Under the pieces are notes generated by a model. The model ran no database searches. It worked only from the letters and a program-made list of their open reading frames with translations, and had not been told where the DNA came from. Shown one piece after another: positions 45,671-64,000 of a stretch of DNA of 64,000 bases. The position numbers and the translations under genes are program-made. The number at the start of each line of letters is the position of its first letter. The stretch's first letter is position 1. The stretch comes from a bacterium (GTDB lineage: Bacteria; Bacillota; Clostridia; Oscillospirales; Acutalibacteraceae). The stretch spans positions 21,197 through 85,196 of the forward strand of contig CAVJZG010000003.1 of NCBI GenBank assembly GCA_963654285.1, in the 5' to 3' direction.

Positions 45671-45948
45671 GTATATAACCATTGTTATATTATTGTCAAA
45701 GTGTATAACAAACGTCAAAATTGTTGAAAACTCTGTTGAAATTATTGATTGTAAAGTATAATGCCTTACAAATTTTGAAAAATTTTAAAACCAAGAGTAT
45801 ACTTCAACATTTTAAACACAGTTTTCAACAAACGGTTCAACAAGAAATCGTGTGTAAAGCTGTTGGTCTTTACGCAAAAATTAAGGCGCTTATGCAATCA
45901 ATGCATAAACGCCTTTTTCATATTTATGAATTTTTCACTGTATATGAA

Positions 45949-57298: not shown

Positions 57299-57437
57299 AC
57301 TGTGGTACGGATGTTCATAACCAACCTAAAATCTATATTTAAAATCCGGCTGAAAGCTCACATATTTCCCCGTACATTTGCCGATTTACCTCCTCTTTGC
57401 TATGATAATATCACAAGATTTTAAGGAGGCTGTTTTT

Positions 57438-57818
57438 ATGAAAAAGTACATTACAGACGAACGCACGGGGCTGAAATATGAGTTGGTCGGTGATTATTAC
57501 CTTATTGCCGGAGACGGTGAGCCGGATGAAGAGCAAAAACCAATCGGGATATGGGGACAGCGGCATCTTCGCTATCTGAAAAATCACCGCAAAGTGCTTT
57601 ACGCCAACTTGCTGACAAGCGGTAAATTAAATGATTATCTTGCTGACATTGACCGACAGGCTAAGGAAATGTTTGAACGGCTAGTAAAGCAAATGACTGC
57701 GGCGGAGGGCATAACGGAGCAACTGAAAGCCACCGACCAAATGGCTTGGGTCGGCAGAATGAACAGCATACGAAATCGAGCTATTGAGATCGTAAACCGT
57801 GAAATTATTTTTATATAA
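57438..57818 (+). CDS. tnpV: TnpV family protein
   Basis: YELVGDYYL, IGIWGQRHLRYLK, EGITEQLKATDQMAWVGRMNSIR; AAGGAGG RBS; TTGCCG-17-TATGAT promoter. Confidence 0.9.
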   Translation: MKKYITDERTGLKYELVGDYYLIAGDGEPDEEQKPIGIWGQRHLRYLKNHRKVLYANLLTSGKLNDYLADIDRQAKEMFERLVKQMTAAEGITEQLKATDQMAWVGRMNSIRNRAIEIVNREIIFI

Positions 57819-57821
57819 GAA

Positions 57822-57856
57822 TAGAGGGTATGCAGTATTGAGCCGCATACCCTCTA
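57822..57856. terminator. hairpin between convergent tnpV and cargo genes
   Basis: TAGAGGGTATGC / GCATACCCTCTA perfect 12-bp stem. Confidence 0.7.
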
Positions 57857-57859
57857 AAA

Positions 57860-58267
57860 TTATTTGTTAATGTTAAAATCCAACAGGGCTATTACCTGTA
57901 AATAGGCATCTTCTTGCGATATTTTCTTCGATGAAACATCGTTCCTTAATGCATTAAATGCTTCTACTTTTTCTTTTGGCGTAATTACTGTGAAAACCGG
58001 ATGGAAATGAGCGTATAAATCCCTTTCTTCATTTAATAATTCTCTTGCAATTTTGCTTGATGAAGGATCCGGCATATCTTCATACAAGGCTATTCTTGAA
58101 CATAAAGATATATACCTGATTGCATCGGCATATGTATTTATTTTTAACTCTAAAACCACGCGCTCTTTTTCTCTTTTGTTACGCCAAATCTCTATCAAAA
58201 AAGAAATGCCTACACCCAAAAGCGCCCCGACCGCACCAATGATCGCCCCGACTATTGTTTCGCACAT
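57860..58267 (-). CDS. hypothetical protein with N-terminal TM anchor
   Basis: IVGAIIGAVGALLGVGISFLI followed by a charged helical domain. Confidence 0.7.
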   Translation of the reverse strand: MCETIVGAIIGAVGALLGVGISFLIEIWRNKREKERVVLELKINTYADAIRYISLCSRIALYEDMPDPSSSKIARELLNEERDLYAHFHPVFTVITPKEKVEAFNALRNDVSSKKISQEDAYLQVIALLDFNINK

Positions 58268-58298
58268 AATTATTTACCCATACAGTATTGTTAGTTTA

Positions 58299-59426
58299 TC
58301 AAATATTAGCAAGTAATTCTTCCATTTTCTTGTTATATAGCTCATCGGGAATTTTCCCTTTAAGCATTTCCAGTTTTTTTAATCGTGTTTCAAAATCAGA
58401 GGTGGTATCGGCAACCTGTGGAGAAATCTCACCTACACCATTACCCATCATATTTCCAGTTGCATTTGCCATATTCATACCAGCAAAAGCCATAAAAGCT
58501 CCTGCATTTTCATTAGATGCAGCTGCTCGCAAAGCGTCTGCCTGCGCCTGAGCAAAATTCGCCGCGGCCATCTGAGAATTTGTAAACACCTTTGTTTCTT
58601 GAAGCTTTGTAAGAATTTTTTGTTCATCATCCGGAACAGAAATAGATTCAAATGCTATAGAGAATATTTTTAAACCTCGCATATCAATCCATTTCTTTTC
58701 TAATAACTTGTTCATCTCATCGACTAATTCGATGGTTTCACCCAATAGATCGCTTGGACGAACGCCACGTGAAGAAATTGGTGCAAATGCAGCCTGTAAA
58801 TAAGTAACAAACTCTGCGCGTAACTGGTCAAGAAGCTGATTGGAAGTAAAGTAATCCTGTATGTTTGCGGCAATTCTTGTGTAAAACACTATCGGATTAT
58901 CAATAGTATAAGAAAATCGCCCTCTACAACGAACATGCAAATCAATATCAGCACCAATGCTTTTGTCCACAAATCTGAACGGTATTGGTGTATACGTACC
59001 AAAAAGATTATTTTCTATCGGCTTGATATTTATAAAGTAAACACGTTGATCTTTTCCGGTGCTACCGCCAAAGGTAAAACGCTTACCAATTTGTTTAAAA
59101 GTATCTTTCAATGATTGTCCGAAATTACCTACAAATATAGAAGGTTCAGTTGAAGTGTCATAGATAAATCTACCTGGTTCGCAAGTTAATTCAACTATCT
59201 TTCCATCTTCAACAATTAAGGCACACTGCCCTTCGTTTACCGCAATCACACTACCATTGCTTATAATGTTTGATTCGCCTCTGAAATTGGTTCCTCGTTG
59301 CGTTTGCTGTTTCTGACCTTTGCACATTAAAACATTTTGAGCTAAGCTATCACAATAAAAATATTCTTTCCATTGATCTCCAAGAGAACCGCCTACAGAA
59401 TTAACGAGAGCTTTTATGAGTCCCAT
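58299..59426 (-). CDS. SPFH (band 7, YdjI-like) domain protein with SHOCT-like C-terminus
   Basis: DQWKEYFYC, NIISNGSVIAVNEGQ, RFTFGG...QRVYFIN, AAASNENAGA; tail RLKKLEMLKGKIPDELYNKKMEELL. Confidence 0.85.
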   Translation of the reverse strand: MGLIKALVNSVGGSLGDQWKEYFYCDSLAQNVLMCKGQKQQTQRGTNFRGESNIISNGSVIAVNEGQCALIVEDGKIVELTCEPGRFIYDTSTEPSIFVGNFGQSLKDTFKQIGKRFTFGGSTGKDQRVYFINIKPIENNLFGTYTPIPFRFVDKSIGADIDLHVRCRGRFSYTIDNPIVFYTRIAANIQDYFTSNQLLDQLRAEFVTYLQAAFAPISSRGVRPSDLLGETIELVDEMNKLLEKKWIDMRGLKIFSIAFESISVPDDEQKILTKLQETKVFTNSQMAAANFAQAQADALRAAASNENAGAFMAFAGMNMANATGNMMGNGVGEISPQVADTTSDFETRLKKLEMLKGKIPDELYNKKMEELLANI

Positions 59427-59438
59427 ACAAATCGCTCC

Positions 59439-59945
59439 TTATCCAACGGTAGGCCTTCCGCAATAATCACATTTTGCCGCATTCCCAGCGGTCGTAATTA
59501 CAAAAGCCCCGCACCCTTGACACTGAATTACTTTGATTTGAGCCGATATATTCTCCTTGTCCTCTTCCGGAATATTGGCTGGAAAAGAAATTCGAGAACG
59601 AGCTAAAGAGGTCACGGCTTCAGTTATCTGTCGAATCCATTCGTTTTTCTGGCTTCTTGTTACAACAAAGGAAAGTTCCTCACCGTACTTTGTATAAAAT
59701 GTGATATTAAAAGAAATCAAATTTGTTGTTGTTTTTATGTTGACGGTATTACCTTGCGTTTGAATATCAGAAAGTTGATATTCATCAAATTTAGAACCAA
59801 AGTTAAAACCATGTGCTTGGAAAACGATTCTTTGATCTGTCAAAAACAGTTTCCCGCCTTTGCTTCCAAAAGTTTCCCATTTGTTGGCCGAGCCAGACAT
59901 CAATAGCTTTTCATTTTGTCTGAGTGTTAATTCCTTAAATCCCAT
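59439..59945 (-). CDS. GRAM/PH-like domain protein with C-terminal zinc ribbon
   Basis: GGKLFLTDQRIVFQAHGFN; CQGCGA...CDYCG; GGAGG RBS. Confidence 0.78.
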   Translation of the reverse strand: MGFKELTLRQNEKLLMSGSANKWETFGSKGGKLFLTDQRIVFQAHGFNFGSKFDEYQLSDIQTQGNTVNIKTTTNLISFNITFYTKYGEELSFVVTRSQKNEWIRQITEAVTSLARSRISFPANIPEEDKENISAQIKVIQCQGCGAFVITTAGNAAKCDYCGRPTVG

Positions 59946-60148
59946 AATTGCCCTCCATTAATGTTAATACTAAAATATATAATCTTGTTTGACACACAAT
60001 GGTTGCTTAATAATTGTCGCACATTGTGTATATACCGATTATGCTTGGTGTTGGTAATGATAGATATATTGCCTTCTGTCCTGTTTGGTTTTTATACTCG
60101 AGAATGATATATAGGATGGTGCATTTATCCTAATTCGTTTTCGATAGC

Positions 60149-60355
60149 TTATTCATCGAAATGATGCAAACCATCATAGGTTAAATCAAATCCAACTGCT
60201 TGCATACCTATATATCGAACATTGTCAATAAGCCCCTCTTTTTTAAGTTTGTCAATAATTGCTCTGTCATCATAACTGATAGGCAAAAAATTAACTGAAC
60301 CAAAGTCGCTTTTTTGTTTGATTGCTTTAGCAAGAAAAGCTTCAAATTCTTTCAT
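60149..60355 (-). CDS. small hypothetical protein, possibly winged-helix-like
   Basis: 68 aa with GAGGAG RBS; IIDKLKKEGLI...LTYDG pattern resembles wHTH wings. Confidence 0.65.
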   Translation of the reverse strand: MKEFEAFLAKAIKQKSDFGSVNFLPISYDDRAIIDKLKKEGLIDNVRYIGMQAVGFDLTYDGLHHFDE

Positions 60356-60377
60356 GTAACATCTCTCCTCAGAATTT

Positions 60378-60405
60378 TAGCAACATAATTCTTATTATGT
60401 TGTAC
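60378..60405. other. dif-like tyrosine-recombinase site, left (IRL)
   Basis: TAGCAACATAA-TTCTTA-TTATGTTGTAC (11-6-11 layout). Confidence 0.8.
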
Positions 60406-60414
60406 ATAGAGCAA

Positions 60415-60442
60415 TAAAAAATCCTGCCACAAAGATAGCAGG
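60415..60442 (-). terminator. terminator inside the invertible segment
   Basis: Minus strand CCTGC-loop-GCAGG-ATTTTTT. Confidence 0.55.
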
Positions 60443-60567
60443 TCAAAAAAGAGTATAGCAAAGCAAGCCTTCTCAAAATTGTCGAAAAAGATAAGGAGAA
60501 AAGGCTTTATTGTCATGTTCACTTTCCGACAATTATGAGTTTTTCATACTTTTCTCAATCAAAGTGC

Positions 60568-60596
60568 TTTACAAACCGTCCTCGTTATGCTATAAT
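60568..60596 (+). promoter_or_regulatory. sigma-A promoter inside the invertible segment
   Basis: TTTACA-17-TATAAT with extended -10 TG; points toward the right site with no plus-strand gene downstream. Confidence 0.75.
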
Positions 60597-60639
60597 ACAA
60601 TACGTAAATTGAGTTTGCTATATCCGTCAAGGAAATTCA

Positions 60640-60667
60640 ATACAACATAATAAGAATTATGTTTCCG
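60640..60667. other. dif-like tyrosine-recombinase site, right (IRR), inverted relative to IRL
   Basis: ATACAACATAA-TAAGAA-TTATGTTTCCG. Spacer TAAGAA is the reverse complement of TTCTTA; 60641-60663 is a perfect inverted copy of 60382-60404. Confidence 0.8.
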
Positions 60668-60689
60668 CCGCCGATTTTGGTGGCTGTTT

Positions 60690-61532
60690 TTATATTATCA
60701 ACCGCATATTCTCCATACGCTGACGGTGTTCTGTTCCAGTGGAAATAATATAAATTCGGGTTGTATTTATGCTTGAGTGGCCGAGAATATCTGCAAGCTT
60801 GGCAATGTCCTTTTCAATTCCGTAAAAGACACGGGCGAACAGGTGACGCAGATTATGAGGAAACACCTTTTGCGGGTTTACATTTGCCTCTTCGCACAAC
60901 GCTTTCATTTCCCGCCAAATGTTAGTACGGCTTATCGGCTTGCCTGTCCTTGTCACAAAAATCATACCGCTTTTAATATTTTGCTCTGCTGCGTAGCGGA
61001 GTAATTTTTGTTTTAACTCCTTTACGATAAAAACCGACCGTGTTTTTGCTTTGCAGTTTACAACCGCCTCACCATGCTGTACCGCCTCAACCGTTATATA
61101 TTGCAGTTCGCTTACACGGATACCCGTGCCGCAAATCGTTTGCAAAATAAGATTAAGCCTTTCATTGTCTTTACGCTCCGCTGCTTTGCAAAGCCGCGCG
61201 TATTCCGCTTTTGTCAACTCTTTTTCTTCGGGGCAGAATACCTGTTGTTGCAGTTTAAGTGATTTTACCTTTAAATCGTGCCAACCTAAAAATGAAAACA
61301 AACTGTTGATACTTGCAAGCATTGAATTTACACTCCGCACGGCATAGTTTTCTTGTAAATGCTTCTTGTATGCGATTACAGTTTCTTTTGTAATATCAGA
61401 GTTTTGCGTATATACAGAAAACGCTTTGACATCACGGATATATTTTTCAACCGTTATTTCGCTCCTTTCCTCTAAGATAAGATGCTCCTTAAATTCGGCA
61501 ATCATTTTTGCCGTAATAAATCGTCCTTTCAT
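60690..61532 (-). CDS. XerD-like tyrosine recombinase
   Basis: 280 aa; catalytic residues intact: GIRVSE (R), CKAK (K), HNLRH (HxxR), LGHS (H), TTRIY (Y). GGAGG RBS. Confidence 0.93.
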   Translation of the reverse strand: MKGRFITAKMIAEFKEHLILEERSEITVEKYIRDVKAFSVYTQNSDITKETVIAYKKHLQENYAVRSVNSMLASINSLFSFLGWHDLKVKSLKLQQQVFCPEEKELTKAEYARLCKAAERKDNERLNLILQTICGTGIRVSELQYITVEAVQHGEAVVNCKAKTRSVFIVKELKQKLLRYAAEQNIKSGMIFVTRTGKPISRTNIWREMKALCEEANVNPQKVFPHNLRHLFARVFYGIEKDIAKLADILGHSSINTTRIYIISTGTEHRQRMENMRLII

Positions 61533-61828
61533 TTTGGTTTACCTCCGAGTATTTTCTAATATTTTACTCGAAAAGTATGAAAACAGAAATTGTCACTGTT
61601 TATTGTAGAAAAAACAGCGGCAATAATCGAATGTGCGGATAAGAACGAGCGTCAAATAACTTTATCGGACACCCAAAAGACTGATAGAAAAGTGGTAACG
61701 GGATATTTTGTCCCATTACCGAAATATGAATGAAGTTGGTAAAGGAACAAATTGTGCCTTTACCAAAAGTAATATAAAAACATAAGTGGCGGTTTCGAAA
61801 TTATGCGGTAACGGTAAAAAATATGGAC

Positions 61829-61878
61829 AAAAAGCCCCGATGAGTTTAGGTCTTCACCTAAATTCATCGGGGCTTTTT
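61829..61878. terminator. bidirectional terminator
   Basis: AAAAAGCCCCGATGA / TCATCGGGGCTTTTT long stem. Confidence 0.85.
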
Positions 61879-61883
61879 GCATT

Positions 61884-62793
61884 TTAATAGATTCCTTTTT
61901 CGGTCAGTTCTCTCCGTATCTTTTCGTATGCGCCGTTTACAATGCGGAAAGCGGTATCGGGTGAGGACAGCGTATGCTCGGCGGCAAGGTCTATGTAGGC
62001 TTTGCTTTTTCGCAGCAGCTTCACGGGCTTGCCGTTTTCGTCTTTGCCAAGCTCATAAATACCGTAACACTCCGTACAAAACCCAAGGTGATCGGCAACC
62101 ATCGTGCGCTCACGGTAATCGAGATTTTCGTAAGCGTCAAAAAGAGCGTCGGTTTGCCACTGTTTGAAAAACAGCCTTTCGGGATTGGATGTTCTGTCAG
62201 CGGGTATATCCTCCGCCGTGCTTTCGCCGTCCTCATCGGCATAACGGCGGTAAAAGTCTGTATAATGAGTGCTGTCAATGCCTGCTCGGATAATTTCTTT
62301 GGTATCCTTAATACTTTTGCCGATCTCTGCGGCAATTTTTGTTATGGTTTCCTCATCAAAATTATACTCGTGCTTTGCGTACAGCGCCATCACCTTTTTA
62401 AGCGTGCGGTATTCATCCACGCTCTGTACCGAATGGCCCTGTCGCATTGTGCGAATGTAGTTGTCTATCTCGCTTTTTACATAGAACTCTTTGAATATGA
62501 GAAACGGAACGCCCCGTGGAAATATCGTATTTTTGCAGTGTCTTGCAGATACCGAAAATATACGCCTGCTTTAGGTCGGCAAAATGCCCCTGCATAGCGG
62601 TTTCCTGCACTGTTTGCATGATGACCGTATTGAGCCGAGGTTCATAATAATGCAAAAACCAACTGAGATATTTTTCGTCTTTTTCAGCAAGGTAAAGGAC
62701 AATATACTCCTGAAAGTCGCTCACTTTCGGCGGCGCCGGTTTCATACGGTATAGGTATAGATCTTCCGTCCAACGATTATTTTTCACCGGCAC
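61884..62793 (-). pseudogene. sigma-70-like protein, frameshifted at 62512-62515
   Basis: Removing one G from ACGGGGCGTT joins the two ORFs: DLKQAYIFGICKTLQKYDISTG-VPFLIFKEFYVKSEIDNYIR (region 2-like) to YENLDYRERTMV...(region 4-like). Confidence 0.75.
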
Positions 62794-62803
62794 ACATCCT
62801 TTC

Positions 62804-63937
62804 TCATTTCATCTTTTTGTCCGTTTCGGCATACAGCGCCTCACGGCTCATAGCCTTTCTGTATTCCTCTTTTGCGTATCTGTCATCCATCTGCGCCCGC
62901 AGTTTATGCTCCTTGGCAAGCCGCTTTGCGGTTTCGGCAAACTCTGTTTTAATTGCTCCTCTGCCGCACTCAGTGCGGATAGCGGCACAGCGGCGGTTGT
63001 ATACTGCCGCAATCGGATCGTTCTCCGCCTTTTCTTTGCGGTTCAGTACAGCGGCGTATTTGCGGCAGGAAATTTTATTGCCCCTATATAATTCCGGCGC
63101 AATACCGTAGGAGCAATATTTCTGCCGCCGTGCGCTTTGCATAAGGAAATACTTGCCGCAGATCTCACACCTGCGTGGATAATGCCCATAGTGCAAGCCT
63201 TCAAAAAAGTCGGTCAGGATAAGGCTGTAATAACTATCAAAGTTGAGCCGTTTGGCAAGTGTTGCGTTTATGCTTTTGGTATTCTTCTTAACGGCAATAT
63301 ATTTACCGCTTTGCGTAAAATGATGTTCACCGAAAACCTCTAACGCCGGCGGCAGTAAATGCGCCTCGTCCAGGCGTTCGGCCTCGTCAACACGCTCACA
63401 GAATTTTATCAGTTTACCGTGAGCGTCAATTAAATCCTCTGAGAGCGTATCAAAGAAACGGAGTATGGATCGAATTTCTGCAATTCTTTCCTCGGTAGCC
63501 GAAAAATCTGCTGTGCGCTTTATTCTTTCCGCCGTGTCTGCGGCAATTTCGTCTTGCGGTAACAAACTGAGCTTTGCTTTTGCGGCGAAGTGTTTGCAAA
63601 TTTCTTGCCCGATCTGCTCTGTAAAGAGCGTTTCAACCGTATTCCGTATTTCTTCTACTTTCAACCTGTCAAAAGGCTTTAGTTTCGGCAGAGCATTTAA
63701 TGATTGCAGGGTATTAGCGCCTGTTTTCACAAAGTCGGAAATATTGAGATACCCGTCCTGCAACTGCCGCAATATATGAAAGTTCAACTCGTCCCGAAAC
63801 ACGGCGATTCGCGCAGCGGTATCGTTTATGTAAAACTGATTGAGCAGATGTACGGCGAACGTTCCGGCAGGATAGTGCTTGCCGCCGAATATTACTCTGC
63901 CGTCACGGTAGTCGGCGGTAAAAAACGAAGAAATCAT
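62804..63937 (-). CDS. DUF6076-like protein (C-terminal Cys cluster)
   Basis: 377 aa; RRCEICGKYF...QKYC...SCR followed by a basic helical tail; AAGGAG upstream. Confidence 0.7.
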   Translation of the reverse strand: MISSFFTADYRDGRVIFGGKHYPAGTFAVHLLNQFYINDTAARIAVFRDELNFHILRQLQDGYLNISDFVKTGANTLQSLNALPKLKPFDRLKVEEIRNTVETLFTEQIGQEICKHFAAKAKLSLLPQDEIAADTAERIKRTADFSATEERIAEIRSILRFFDTLSEDLIDAHGKLIKFCERVDEAERLDEAHLLPPALEVFGEHHFTQSGKYIAVKKNTKSINATLAKRLNFDSYYSLILTDFFEGLHYGHYPRRCEICGKYFLMQSARRQKYCSYGIAPELYRGNKISCRKYAAVLNRKEKAENDPIAAVYNRRCAAIRTECGRGAIKTEFAETAKRLAKEHKLRAQMDDRYAKEEYRKAMSREALYAETDKKMK

Positions 63938-64000
63938 TGTCCTTTGCTCCTTTGGATTATTCTATCATAAGTGCTGTACCATAAAACGGACTCGGCAAAA

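Follow-up and report, generated by a model that had tools for sequence, protein, structure and literature searches.

The locus described here raises the question of whether a short DNA segment, bounded by inverted repeats and lying next to an intact tyrosine recombinase gene, is a promoter switch that is turned by that recombinase. The locus is located in a 64,000-nucleotide (nt) stretch of contig CAVJZG010000003.1 from an Acutalibacteraceae genome (GenBank assembly GCA_963654285.1), and this whole 64-kb stretch is termed the window throughout. We conclude, with a rough probability of 0.88, that the locus is a phase-variation switch (inverton) in which a promoter segment is inverted beside its own recombinase gene. 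This conclusion is based on the anatomy of the locus, the matched cores of its recombination sites, the presence of both orientations in close relatives and the intact catalytic set of the recombinase.

Paired recombination sites in the window

The switch is delimited by two sites, of which the proximal one is next to the recombinase gene and the distal one is next to the genes here termed cargo:

60382-60404 (unstranded): distal recombination site, left arm, AACATAAT-TCTT-ATTATGTTGTA
60405-60640 (unstranded): invertible segment of 236 nt, lying between the repeats, with homologues reverse-complemented between collinear flanks
60641-60663 (unstranded): proximal recombination site, right arm, TACAACATAAT-AAGA-ATTATGTT

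The two arms (60382-60404 and 60641-60663) are 23 nt each, 100% complementary and separated by 236 nt, and they are the same arms that an earlier annotation of this DNA (the original prediction) had reported as a perfect 23-bp inverted repeat. When the window was scanned for inverted repeats with arms no more than 1500 nt apart, this site pair was found to be the sole perfect repeat of at least 18 nt whose arms lie more than 60 nt from each other. The 20-nt site was detected without mismatch at these two positions alone in the 2.02-Mb genome. The gap from the right repeat to the stop codon of the recombinase gene was measured at 26 nt, rather than the 22 bp first given.

Each arm is quasi-palindromic in shape (ACATAAT-TCTT-ATTATGT), with an asymmetric centre that is oppositely oriented between the two copies. 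The half-sites AACATAAT and ATTATGTT are mutual reverse complements, and the repeats represent two sites in inverted orientation, not one site with differing arms. Because the centre is asymmetric, recombination between sites inverted in this way is expected to result in inversion. Each copy had also been described as an 11-6-11 site. The quasi-palindrome and asymmetric centre of this description were borne out, but among relatives of the locus the 6-nt spacer was found to vary at its central 4 nt only, with the T and A that flank this 4-nt core conserved.

Conservation of the sites beside homologous recombinases

Relatives were collected by a scan that included one genome per species, and the best 80 of 380 encoding stretches (76-95% identity; L008-L087) were retained. 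These loci carry the source labels Ruminococcaceae, Oscillospiraceae, Acutalibacteraceae, Roseburia, Agathobacter, Butyrivibrio and others, and are from metagenome-assembled as well as isolate genomes. With the window included there were 81 loci, and the 73 that had at least 330 nt past the stop codon of the recombinase gene were used for site counts. A matched site pair, with 4-nt centres that are exact reverse complements, was found in 67 of these 73 loci. The site consensus, read from outside to inside, is (tac)AACATAAT-Cnnn-ATTATGTTGTA, with arms that are 92-100% conserved and site lengths of 18-26 nt across the family. For the large majority of the 80 loci, the proximal site begins 27-45 nt past the stop codon, and the outliers range from +11 to +57. 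By contrast to the arms, the 4-nt core took 28 non-palindromic forms in the 67 loci. Within a locus the two cores were always matched and inverted, an agreement that chance would give at a rate of 1/256 per locus. A tyrosine recombinase requires its partner sites to be identical in the strand-exchange region, and constant arms around a core that is variable but matched within each locus are what this would predict.

More distant relatives were examined in an even sample of the order, in which a match at E ≤ 1e-80 was detected in 85 of 301 genomes, representing 58 of 153 genera, with up to four matches per genome. Of 29 sampled loci (58-95% identity), 24 had sufficient downstream DNA, and a site-like inverted pair was detected in 21; for the other 3 of the 24, no inverted pair was found by exact-seed search. 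The presence of paired sites beside homologous recombinases, which had been put forward as a check of the switch, was thus confirmed both in the 73 closer loci and in this more distant set. The protein database includes at least 7999 clusters of recombinase relatives, none of which is named.

Two side observations concern the cores. Loci L103, L104, L105, L106, L108 and L062 have three sites with the same core, two direct and one inverted, and this arrangement would permit two alternative inversions or a deletion. Between L017 and L025, with flanks 96-98% identical, the core is changed at both sites together (CATC versus CAGC); it seems that a change in one site is transferred to the other, which is what strand exchange across the core would bring about.

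Inversion among relatives and orientation in public assemblies

Five sets of near-identical loci were found in which the flanks are collinear and the intervening segment is reverse-complemented (identities are given for the left and right flanks, and for the segment aligned in reverse-complemented and forward orientation):

L017 versus L025: flanks 96% and 98%; segment reverse-complemented 99%, forward 51%
L059 versus L053: flanks 99% and 96%; segment reverse-complemented 98%, forward 55%
L053 versus L066: flanks 86% and 92%; segment reverse-complemented 88%, forward 47%
L054 versus L068 and L072: left flank 91-92%; segment reverse-complemented 87-91%, forward 56-57%
L050 versus L060, L042 and L067: flanks 87-92% and 90-95%; segment reverse-complemented 74-81%, forward 26-47%

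Reverse-complemented segments between collinear flanks reveal that inversion occurs in nature, and the occurrence of both orientations at homologous loci, a second check proposed with the original prediction, was thereby observed. In a looser orientation graph of 63 segments, 7 were inverted (32 of 989 edges inconsistent).

Four public runs (X1-X4), which contain at most 46% of the sampled words, were compared to the window as assembled contigs. In run X2, one contig breaks off at 60404, where the left repeat has its inner end, and a 282-nt contig (contig 8) corresponds exactly to 60382-60663. Two 37-nt contigs extend over both junctions at a depth of 2-3, compared to a depth of 5.2 for the flank and 6.3 for the segment. 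With words longer than the repeat, contig breaks at both repeats suggest that both orientations were present in this run; the pattern is the graph signature of mixed orientations, and the opposite-orientation junctions are those implied by the contigs. Public contigs L008, L014, L020, L048 and L058 likewise terminate at precisely the inner edge of the proximal repeat. Both orientations were observed at the level of the family, and for the window copy we infer flipping from the contigs and the relatives. As a separate observation, a contig of run X1 matches the cargo and switch and departs from the window at the recombinase stop codon (60694); this combination of cargo and switch can thus occur with a recombinase allele of less than 90% identity.

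Predicted promoter and terminators of the invertible segment

Three predicted transcription signals were located in or next to the segment:

60568-60596 (plus strand): promoter TTTACA-17-TGcTATAAT, sigma-70-type, an 11/12 consensus match with TG before the -10 element, facing the recombinase
60667-60694 (plus strand): guard terminator, hairpin 60667-60684 and T run, which would stop transcripts heading from the switch to the recombinase gene (antisense)
60413-60442 (minus strand): intrinsic terminator inside the segment, hairpin 60442-60423 and T tail, which would block recombinase read-through into the cargo

The promoter was the top-scoring of 10 promoter-like sites within 59300-62000 and, as had been proposed, is near consensus and faces away from the cargo. 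The hairpin foreseen beyond the right site was recovered on the plus strand with its T tail, as was the minus-strand terminator within the segment. These coordinates place the promoter toward the recombinase and the internal terminator against read-through, in agreement with the OFF geometry that had been claimed; judged by its sequence, the window copy is in the OFF orientation. After a flip, the promoter had been expected about 85 nt upstream of the ATG at 60355; this arrangement held, with the distance adjusted to a 5' untranslated region of about 87 nt.

Similar signals were found among the relatives. A promoter match of at least 10/12 was detected in 52 of the 67 segments, compared to a mean of 16 in shuffled segments, and the promoter faced the recombinase in 42 of these 52. 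Between the stop codon and the proximal site, a guard-type terminator (opposing the recombinase) was present in 55 of 67 loci and a terminator in the sense direction in none (0/67). Many relatives of the same orientation have a co-directional terminator close to the distal site, and in the inverted loci L053 and L054 it is at the mirrored position. A co-directional open reading frame (ORF) follows the distal site in 34 of the 67 loci by a strict rule. The promoter and terminators of the window are presumed to work as scanned. A search of 59300-62000 against Rfam gave nothing meaningful, with two matches (E 0.16-0.8) that were far under gathering scores. A promoter-based 'ON' call for L047 was dropped, as its segment aligns forward with those of L039 and L041.

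The adjacent tyrosine recombinase

The gene next to the proximal site and its upstream region are as follows:

60690-61532 (minus strand): tyrosine recombinase of 280 amino acids (aa), Xer-like, presumed invertase; Pfam Phage_integrase (4e-26) and N-terminal SAM-like Phage_int_SAM_1
61533-61641 (minus strand): conserved leader/promoter region of about 108 nt and proximal limit of the module, identified by similarity among loci upstream of the recombinase start

The original prediction had described the recombinase as intact, and it was found to contain a complete catalytic set, with all six residues (R139, K163, H226, R229, H252 and Y261) aligned to those of XerD. The closest solved relatives were the archaeal XerA-like 4a8e (1.6e-22), XerA 5hxy and E. 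coli XerD 1a0p. When compared to Xer models, the recombinase scored 141 bits for XerA (cut-off 220), 117.4 for XerD (329.6), 109.8 for XerC (335.15) and 61 for XerS (267). Scores for the Fim-type invertase models NCBIfam NF007370 and NF007371 were 33.7 (cut-off 221) and 25.8 (cut-off 222). Since it is below all of the family cut-offs, the recombinase is considered Xer-like in fold and size and a member of none of these families. Alignment of 71 upstream regions revealed conserved blocks, the last of which is the ribosome-binding site TCGGAGGTAA. The recombinase is single-copy in the genome.

The sites had been labelled 'dif-like', and by one alternative explanation they would be inverted by XerC/XerD-type recombinases of the host, with the adjacent recombinase doing other work or assisting. 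The resemblance stands, as the site shares CATAA-N6-TTATGTT with the E. coli dif sequence, and the genome does encode two more tyrosine recombinases (25-27% identical to the one at the switch). The label fares less well in that the adjacent recombinase is far under all Xer equivalog cut-offs and the arms are palindromic. When a host dif site was sought, 24 CATAA-N6-TTATG matches at 12 places were found with both strands counted, compared to 8 expected by composition, and none of them was distinguishable. Because no host dif site could be picked out, 'dif-like' refers to a resemblance to the dif consensus. Inversion by host proteins is also hard to reconcile with a recombinase gene that stays linked to its paired sites in 67 of 73 loci, and over 58-95% identity, and with module similarity that runs from the recombinase leader to the distal site. 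In addition, both arms have the same palindromic half-site, as in single-recombinase systems. We consider this explanation very improbable. Palindromic arms argue for a single recombinase rather than XerC plus XerD, and the adjacent enzyme is probably an invertase that acts without a host Xer protein.

Limits of the module and its cargo

Similarity of the window to other loci starts 40-108 nt upstream of the recombinase ATG, and in 78 of 79 aligned loci it extends no further than the outer edge of the distal site, with L012 alone continuing beyond. These limits at the leader and at the distal site define a portable unit of about 1.26 kb. The cargo beyond it in the window is a presumed operon:

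60149-60355 (minus strand): first cargo ORF, 68 aa, no family, with a GGAGAG ribosome-binding site upstream and an ATG 27 nt past the distal site
59439-59945 (minus strand): 168-aa protein with a GRAM / bacterial PH domain and C-terminal cysteine pairs (Pfam GRAM 6.7e-6, bPH_3 5e-4)
58299-59426 (minus strand): SPFH / Band 7 protein, 375 aa (Pfam Band_7_1 1.8e-14; Atlas neighbours all Band_7_1)
57860-58267 (minus strand): 135-aa protein of no family whose N-terminus is hydrophobic; its gene closes the presumed operon and is common to L012

This cargo set recurs in L012 only, where the 68-aa ORF is identical; a partial relative of the ORF was found in L046. SPFH proteins are again cargo in L032, L077, L082 and L087. 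A survey of 89 co-directional ORFs in first or second place beyond the distal site revealed enzymes and signalling proteins (Eco57I-type and type III DNA methyltransferases, GGDEF cyclases, an acyltransferase, an HNH protein and HTH regulators) as well as surface and other proteins (SPFH, zinc-ribbon, BspA-type and other LRR, cohesin/Flg_new, collagen-repeat, FHA-ABC transporter and camelysin-like proteins). In 4 of 5 cases the GGDEF cargo has a VTC-domain partner or a second GGDEF protein. Phase-variable loci typically have cargo of these kinds. None of 14 cargo proteins, from the window and other loci, matched a defence system in PADLOC.

Inter-locus similarity that ends exactly at the outer edge of the distal site, with cargo almost everywhere different, would also suit a distal site that serves chiefly for gene capture or exchange (integron-like or Xer-mobile-element-like), with inversion as a side reaction. 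Weak partial matches to integron-integrase models, and two assemblies that each have two switches of the same core and different cargo, point in this direction. However, the integron-integrase model gave 58.5 bits compared to a cut-off of 265, and a third site upstream, as needed for module excision, was limited to one weak match in 70 upstream regions. No site array was found after the cargo, with further sites past the distal site in 2 of 64 loci only. Moreover, the promoter, internal terminator and guard terminator are sensible only for an ON/OFF switch, and we regard gene capture as a highly unlikely chief function. Least probable of all is that the inverted repeats are the ends of a small non-autonomous transposable element that happened to insert next to the recombinase gene, since the miniature-element-like size (282 nt including repeats) and perfect terminal repeats are outweighed by a position relative to the recombinase stop codon that is fixed in most loci, a repeat centre that varies between loci around constant arms, a single copy in the genome and both orientations between unchanged flanks.

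Beyond the phase switch itself, a broader proposal may be made, that the unit of about 1.26 kb is a plug-in switch, complete in itself and spreading horizontally, that forms the main inverton system of gut Clostridia; distal-site recombination would rewire it to new cargo, and an evolvable 4-nt core would set pairing. We hold this proposal to be possible but doubtful. The end of similarity at the distal site, the different cargo in almost every locus and the wide distribution of the family are consistent with it, but no excision or integration product was seen and the cores of co-resident switches were no more different than chance. Among 10 assemblies with at least two switches, 2 of 12 pairs share a core compared to 0.47 expected by shuffling, and both of these pairs are separate loci with different cargo. 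The idea that co-resident switches avoid a common core and so hold a 'private address' was thus unsupported and set aside.

Evidence against a phase switch

Several results weigh against the reading of this locus as a phase switch. Six of the 73 loci deviate from the matched pair, as the centres are 1 nt apart in L018 and L029 and one recognisable site was found in L021, L027, L040 and L069. In a strict orientation graph, 35 of 37 segments were in the orientation of the window and 2 were inverted, with 0 of 370 edges inconsistent; from this skew, flipping may be rare or OFF-biased. In runs X1, X3 and X4 the switch is spanned by one contig each, in the orientation of the window only, although contigs drop minority forms. 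The promoter and terminators of the window are consensus matches only, and the recombinase scores under the curated cut-offs of all named invertase and Xer families. Apart from these considerations, the six deviating loci may themselves be locked or decayed switches.

Proposed mechanism

The phase switch would operate as follows. The 280-aa recombinase alone, as a homotetramer, would bind the palindromic arms AACATAAT and ATTATGTT of both inverted sites, and strand exchange across the asymmetric centre T-NNNN-A (TCTT here) would invert the 236-nt segment. In the OFF state, as assembled, the segment promoter would fire toward the recombinase from a start near 60603, and the transcript would end after about 90 nt at the guard terminator. 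The internal terminator would halt recombinase read-through, and the cargo operon (orf68, GRAM/PH, SPFH and small membrane protein) would be silent. In the flipped ON state, transcription would start near 60442 by mirrored coordinates, 87 nt before the ATG at 60355, and the internal terminator would face away. The recombinase gene would be transcribed into the switch and meet a convergent promoter in the OFF state only, such that recombinase expression may depend on orientation. Expression of fimE is orientation-dependent.

Genomic context

From its gene content, the DNA around the switch is a Tn4451-like mobilisable element, with the signature of TnpV, a mobilisation relaxase and a large serine recombinase with DUF4368 found together. 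The element stretch examined included 57378-64000 of the window and G000:C3:85306-92038 (L088). Two genes of the element in the window are:

57378-57818: TnpV, on the cargo side of the switch
62804-63937: DUF6076 protein

Past the window is an HTH/HipA-like pair, and G000:C3:87377-92038 encodes a NikA-like protein, a relaxase, ParB_N and a large serine recombinase with DUF4368. Housekeeping genes come after these. Since the element carries its own large serine recombinase, the tyrosine recombinase would be unneeded as an integrase and free for the switch.

Several neighbouring features were also observed. At 61884-62793 (minus strand), overlapping ORFs of 126 aa and 187 aa are weakly sigma-factor-like and correspond to a single gene of 319-381 aa in L022 and L057; the frame shift near 62512 may represent a frameshifted pseudogene or an assembly error. 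About 190 nt (61642-61830) lie between a strong hairpin (61828-61879) and the recombinase leader, and in several relatives the corresponding hairpin directly adjoins the leader. The same interval includes a terminator-like hairpin (61720-61694, minus strand) and a 15-nt palindrome (61736-61766). Elsewhere in the window, at 45721-45831, is a 28-nt inverted repeat that is 86% complementary with arms 55 nt apart.

Relation to known systems and significance

Invertible promoters beside tyrosine recombinases are a known kind of switch, as exemplified by fimS and the Bacteroides switches. They are well studied in Bacteroides and a few pathogens, and in gut Clostridia, which are abundant and mostly uncultured, they have chiefly been catalogued. 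Similar to E. coli fimS with FimB/FimE, the present locus has a short invertible promoter segment, a recombinase gene transcribed toward the switch and predicted ON/OFF control of a downstream operon. As at fimS, recombinase transcripts would read into the switch, and orientation-dependent expression is possible. The fimS switch has 9-bp repeats, two recombinases and host accessory proteins. By contrast, the switch described here has sites of 18-26 nt with palindromic arms and, by our reading, one recombinase. Like the single-recombinase Xer systems (archaeal XerA, XerH and XerS) and XerC/XerD-dif, the present system includes a two-domain protein of about 280 aa and palindromic arms around a short centre. 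It differs from these systems in that two inverted sites are 236 nt apart on a mobile element, instead of one site at the replication terminus, and the outcome would be inversion rather than dimer resolution.

In the Cdi switches of C. difficile, the tyrosine recombinase RecV inverts short segments upstream of surface, flagellar and c-di-GMP genes (PMC5903667). Likened by description, the two systems have similar cargo themes, including GGDEF-type signalling, and differ in that RecV is one distant master recombinase for several sites, whereas the present switches each adjoin their own recombinase gene. A 2025 report on the hCom2 community includes an 'inverton group 139' of 33 invertons (32 in Clostridia) and links it to a tyrosine 'invertase group 35'; repeats in the published examples are 13-25 nt long and 206-228 nt apart (PMC11892184). 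Flipping of group 139 was detected in reads of Clostridium sp. D5 and Intestinimonas butyriciproducens. As in group 139, the switch of the window is an intergenic inverton next to a Clostridia tyrosine recombinase, and repeat size and spacing are comparable. Based on this description, group 139 may be the same family as the present switches; relative to the accessible part of that report, site anatomy, core covariation, guard terminator, module limits and a cargo survey are here given for the family. Beyond the accessible part of PMC11892184, no description of the present site or family was found in the literature searched, and the site strings ATTATGTTGTA and TACAACATAAT were in no relevant paper among the matches listed. 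The view across the family adds an apparently portable one-enzyme unit, matched variable cores, a guard terminator and diverse cargo.

The locus offers gut Clostridia a testable model with a defined site, one dedicated enzyme, a guard terminator and well-marked module boundaries. Under the apparent control of the family are DNA methyltransferases (whose switching would change methylation across the genome), c-di-GMP cyclases, SPFH membrane proteins and LRR, cohesin or collagen-like surface proteins, and such traits bear on colonisation, phage resistance and immune recognition. The compact, one-enzyme and core-addressable design could in addition supply orthogonal genetic switches for anaerobes.

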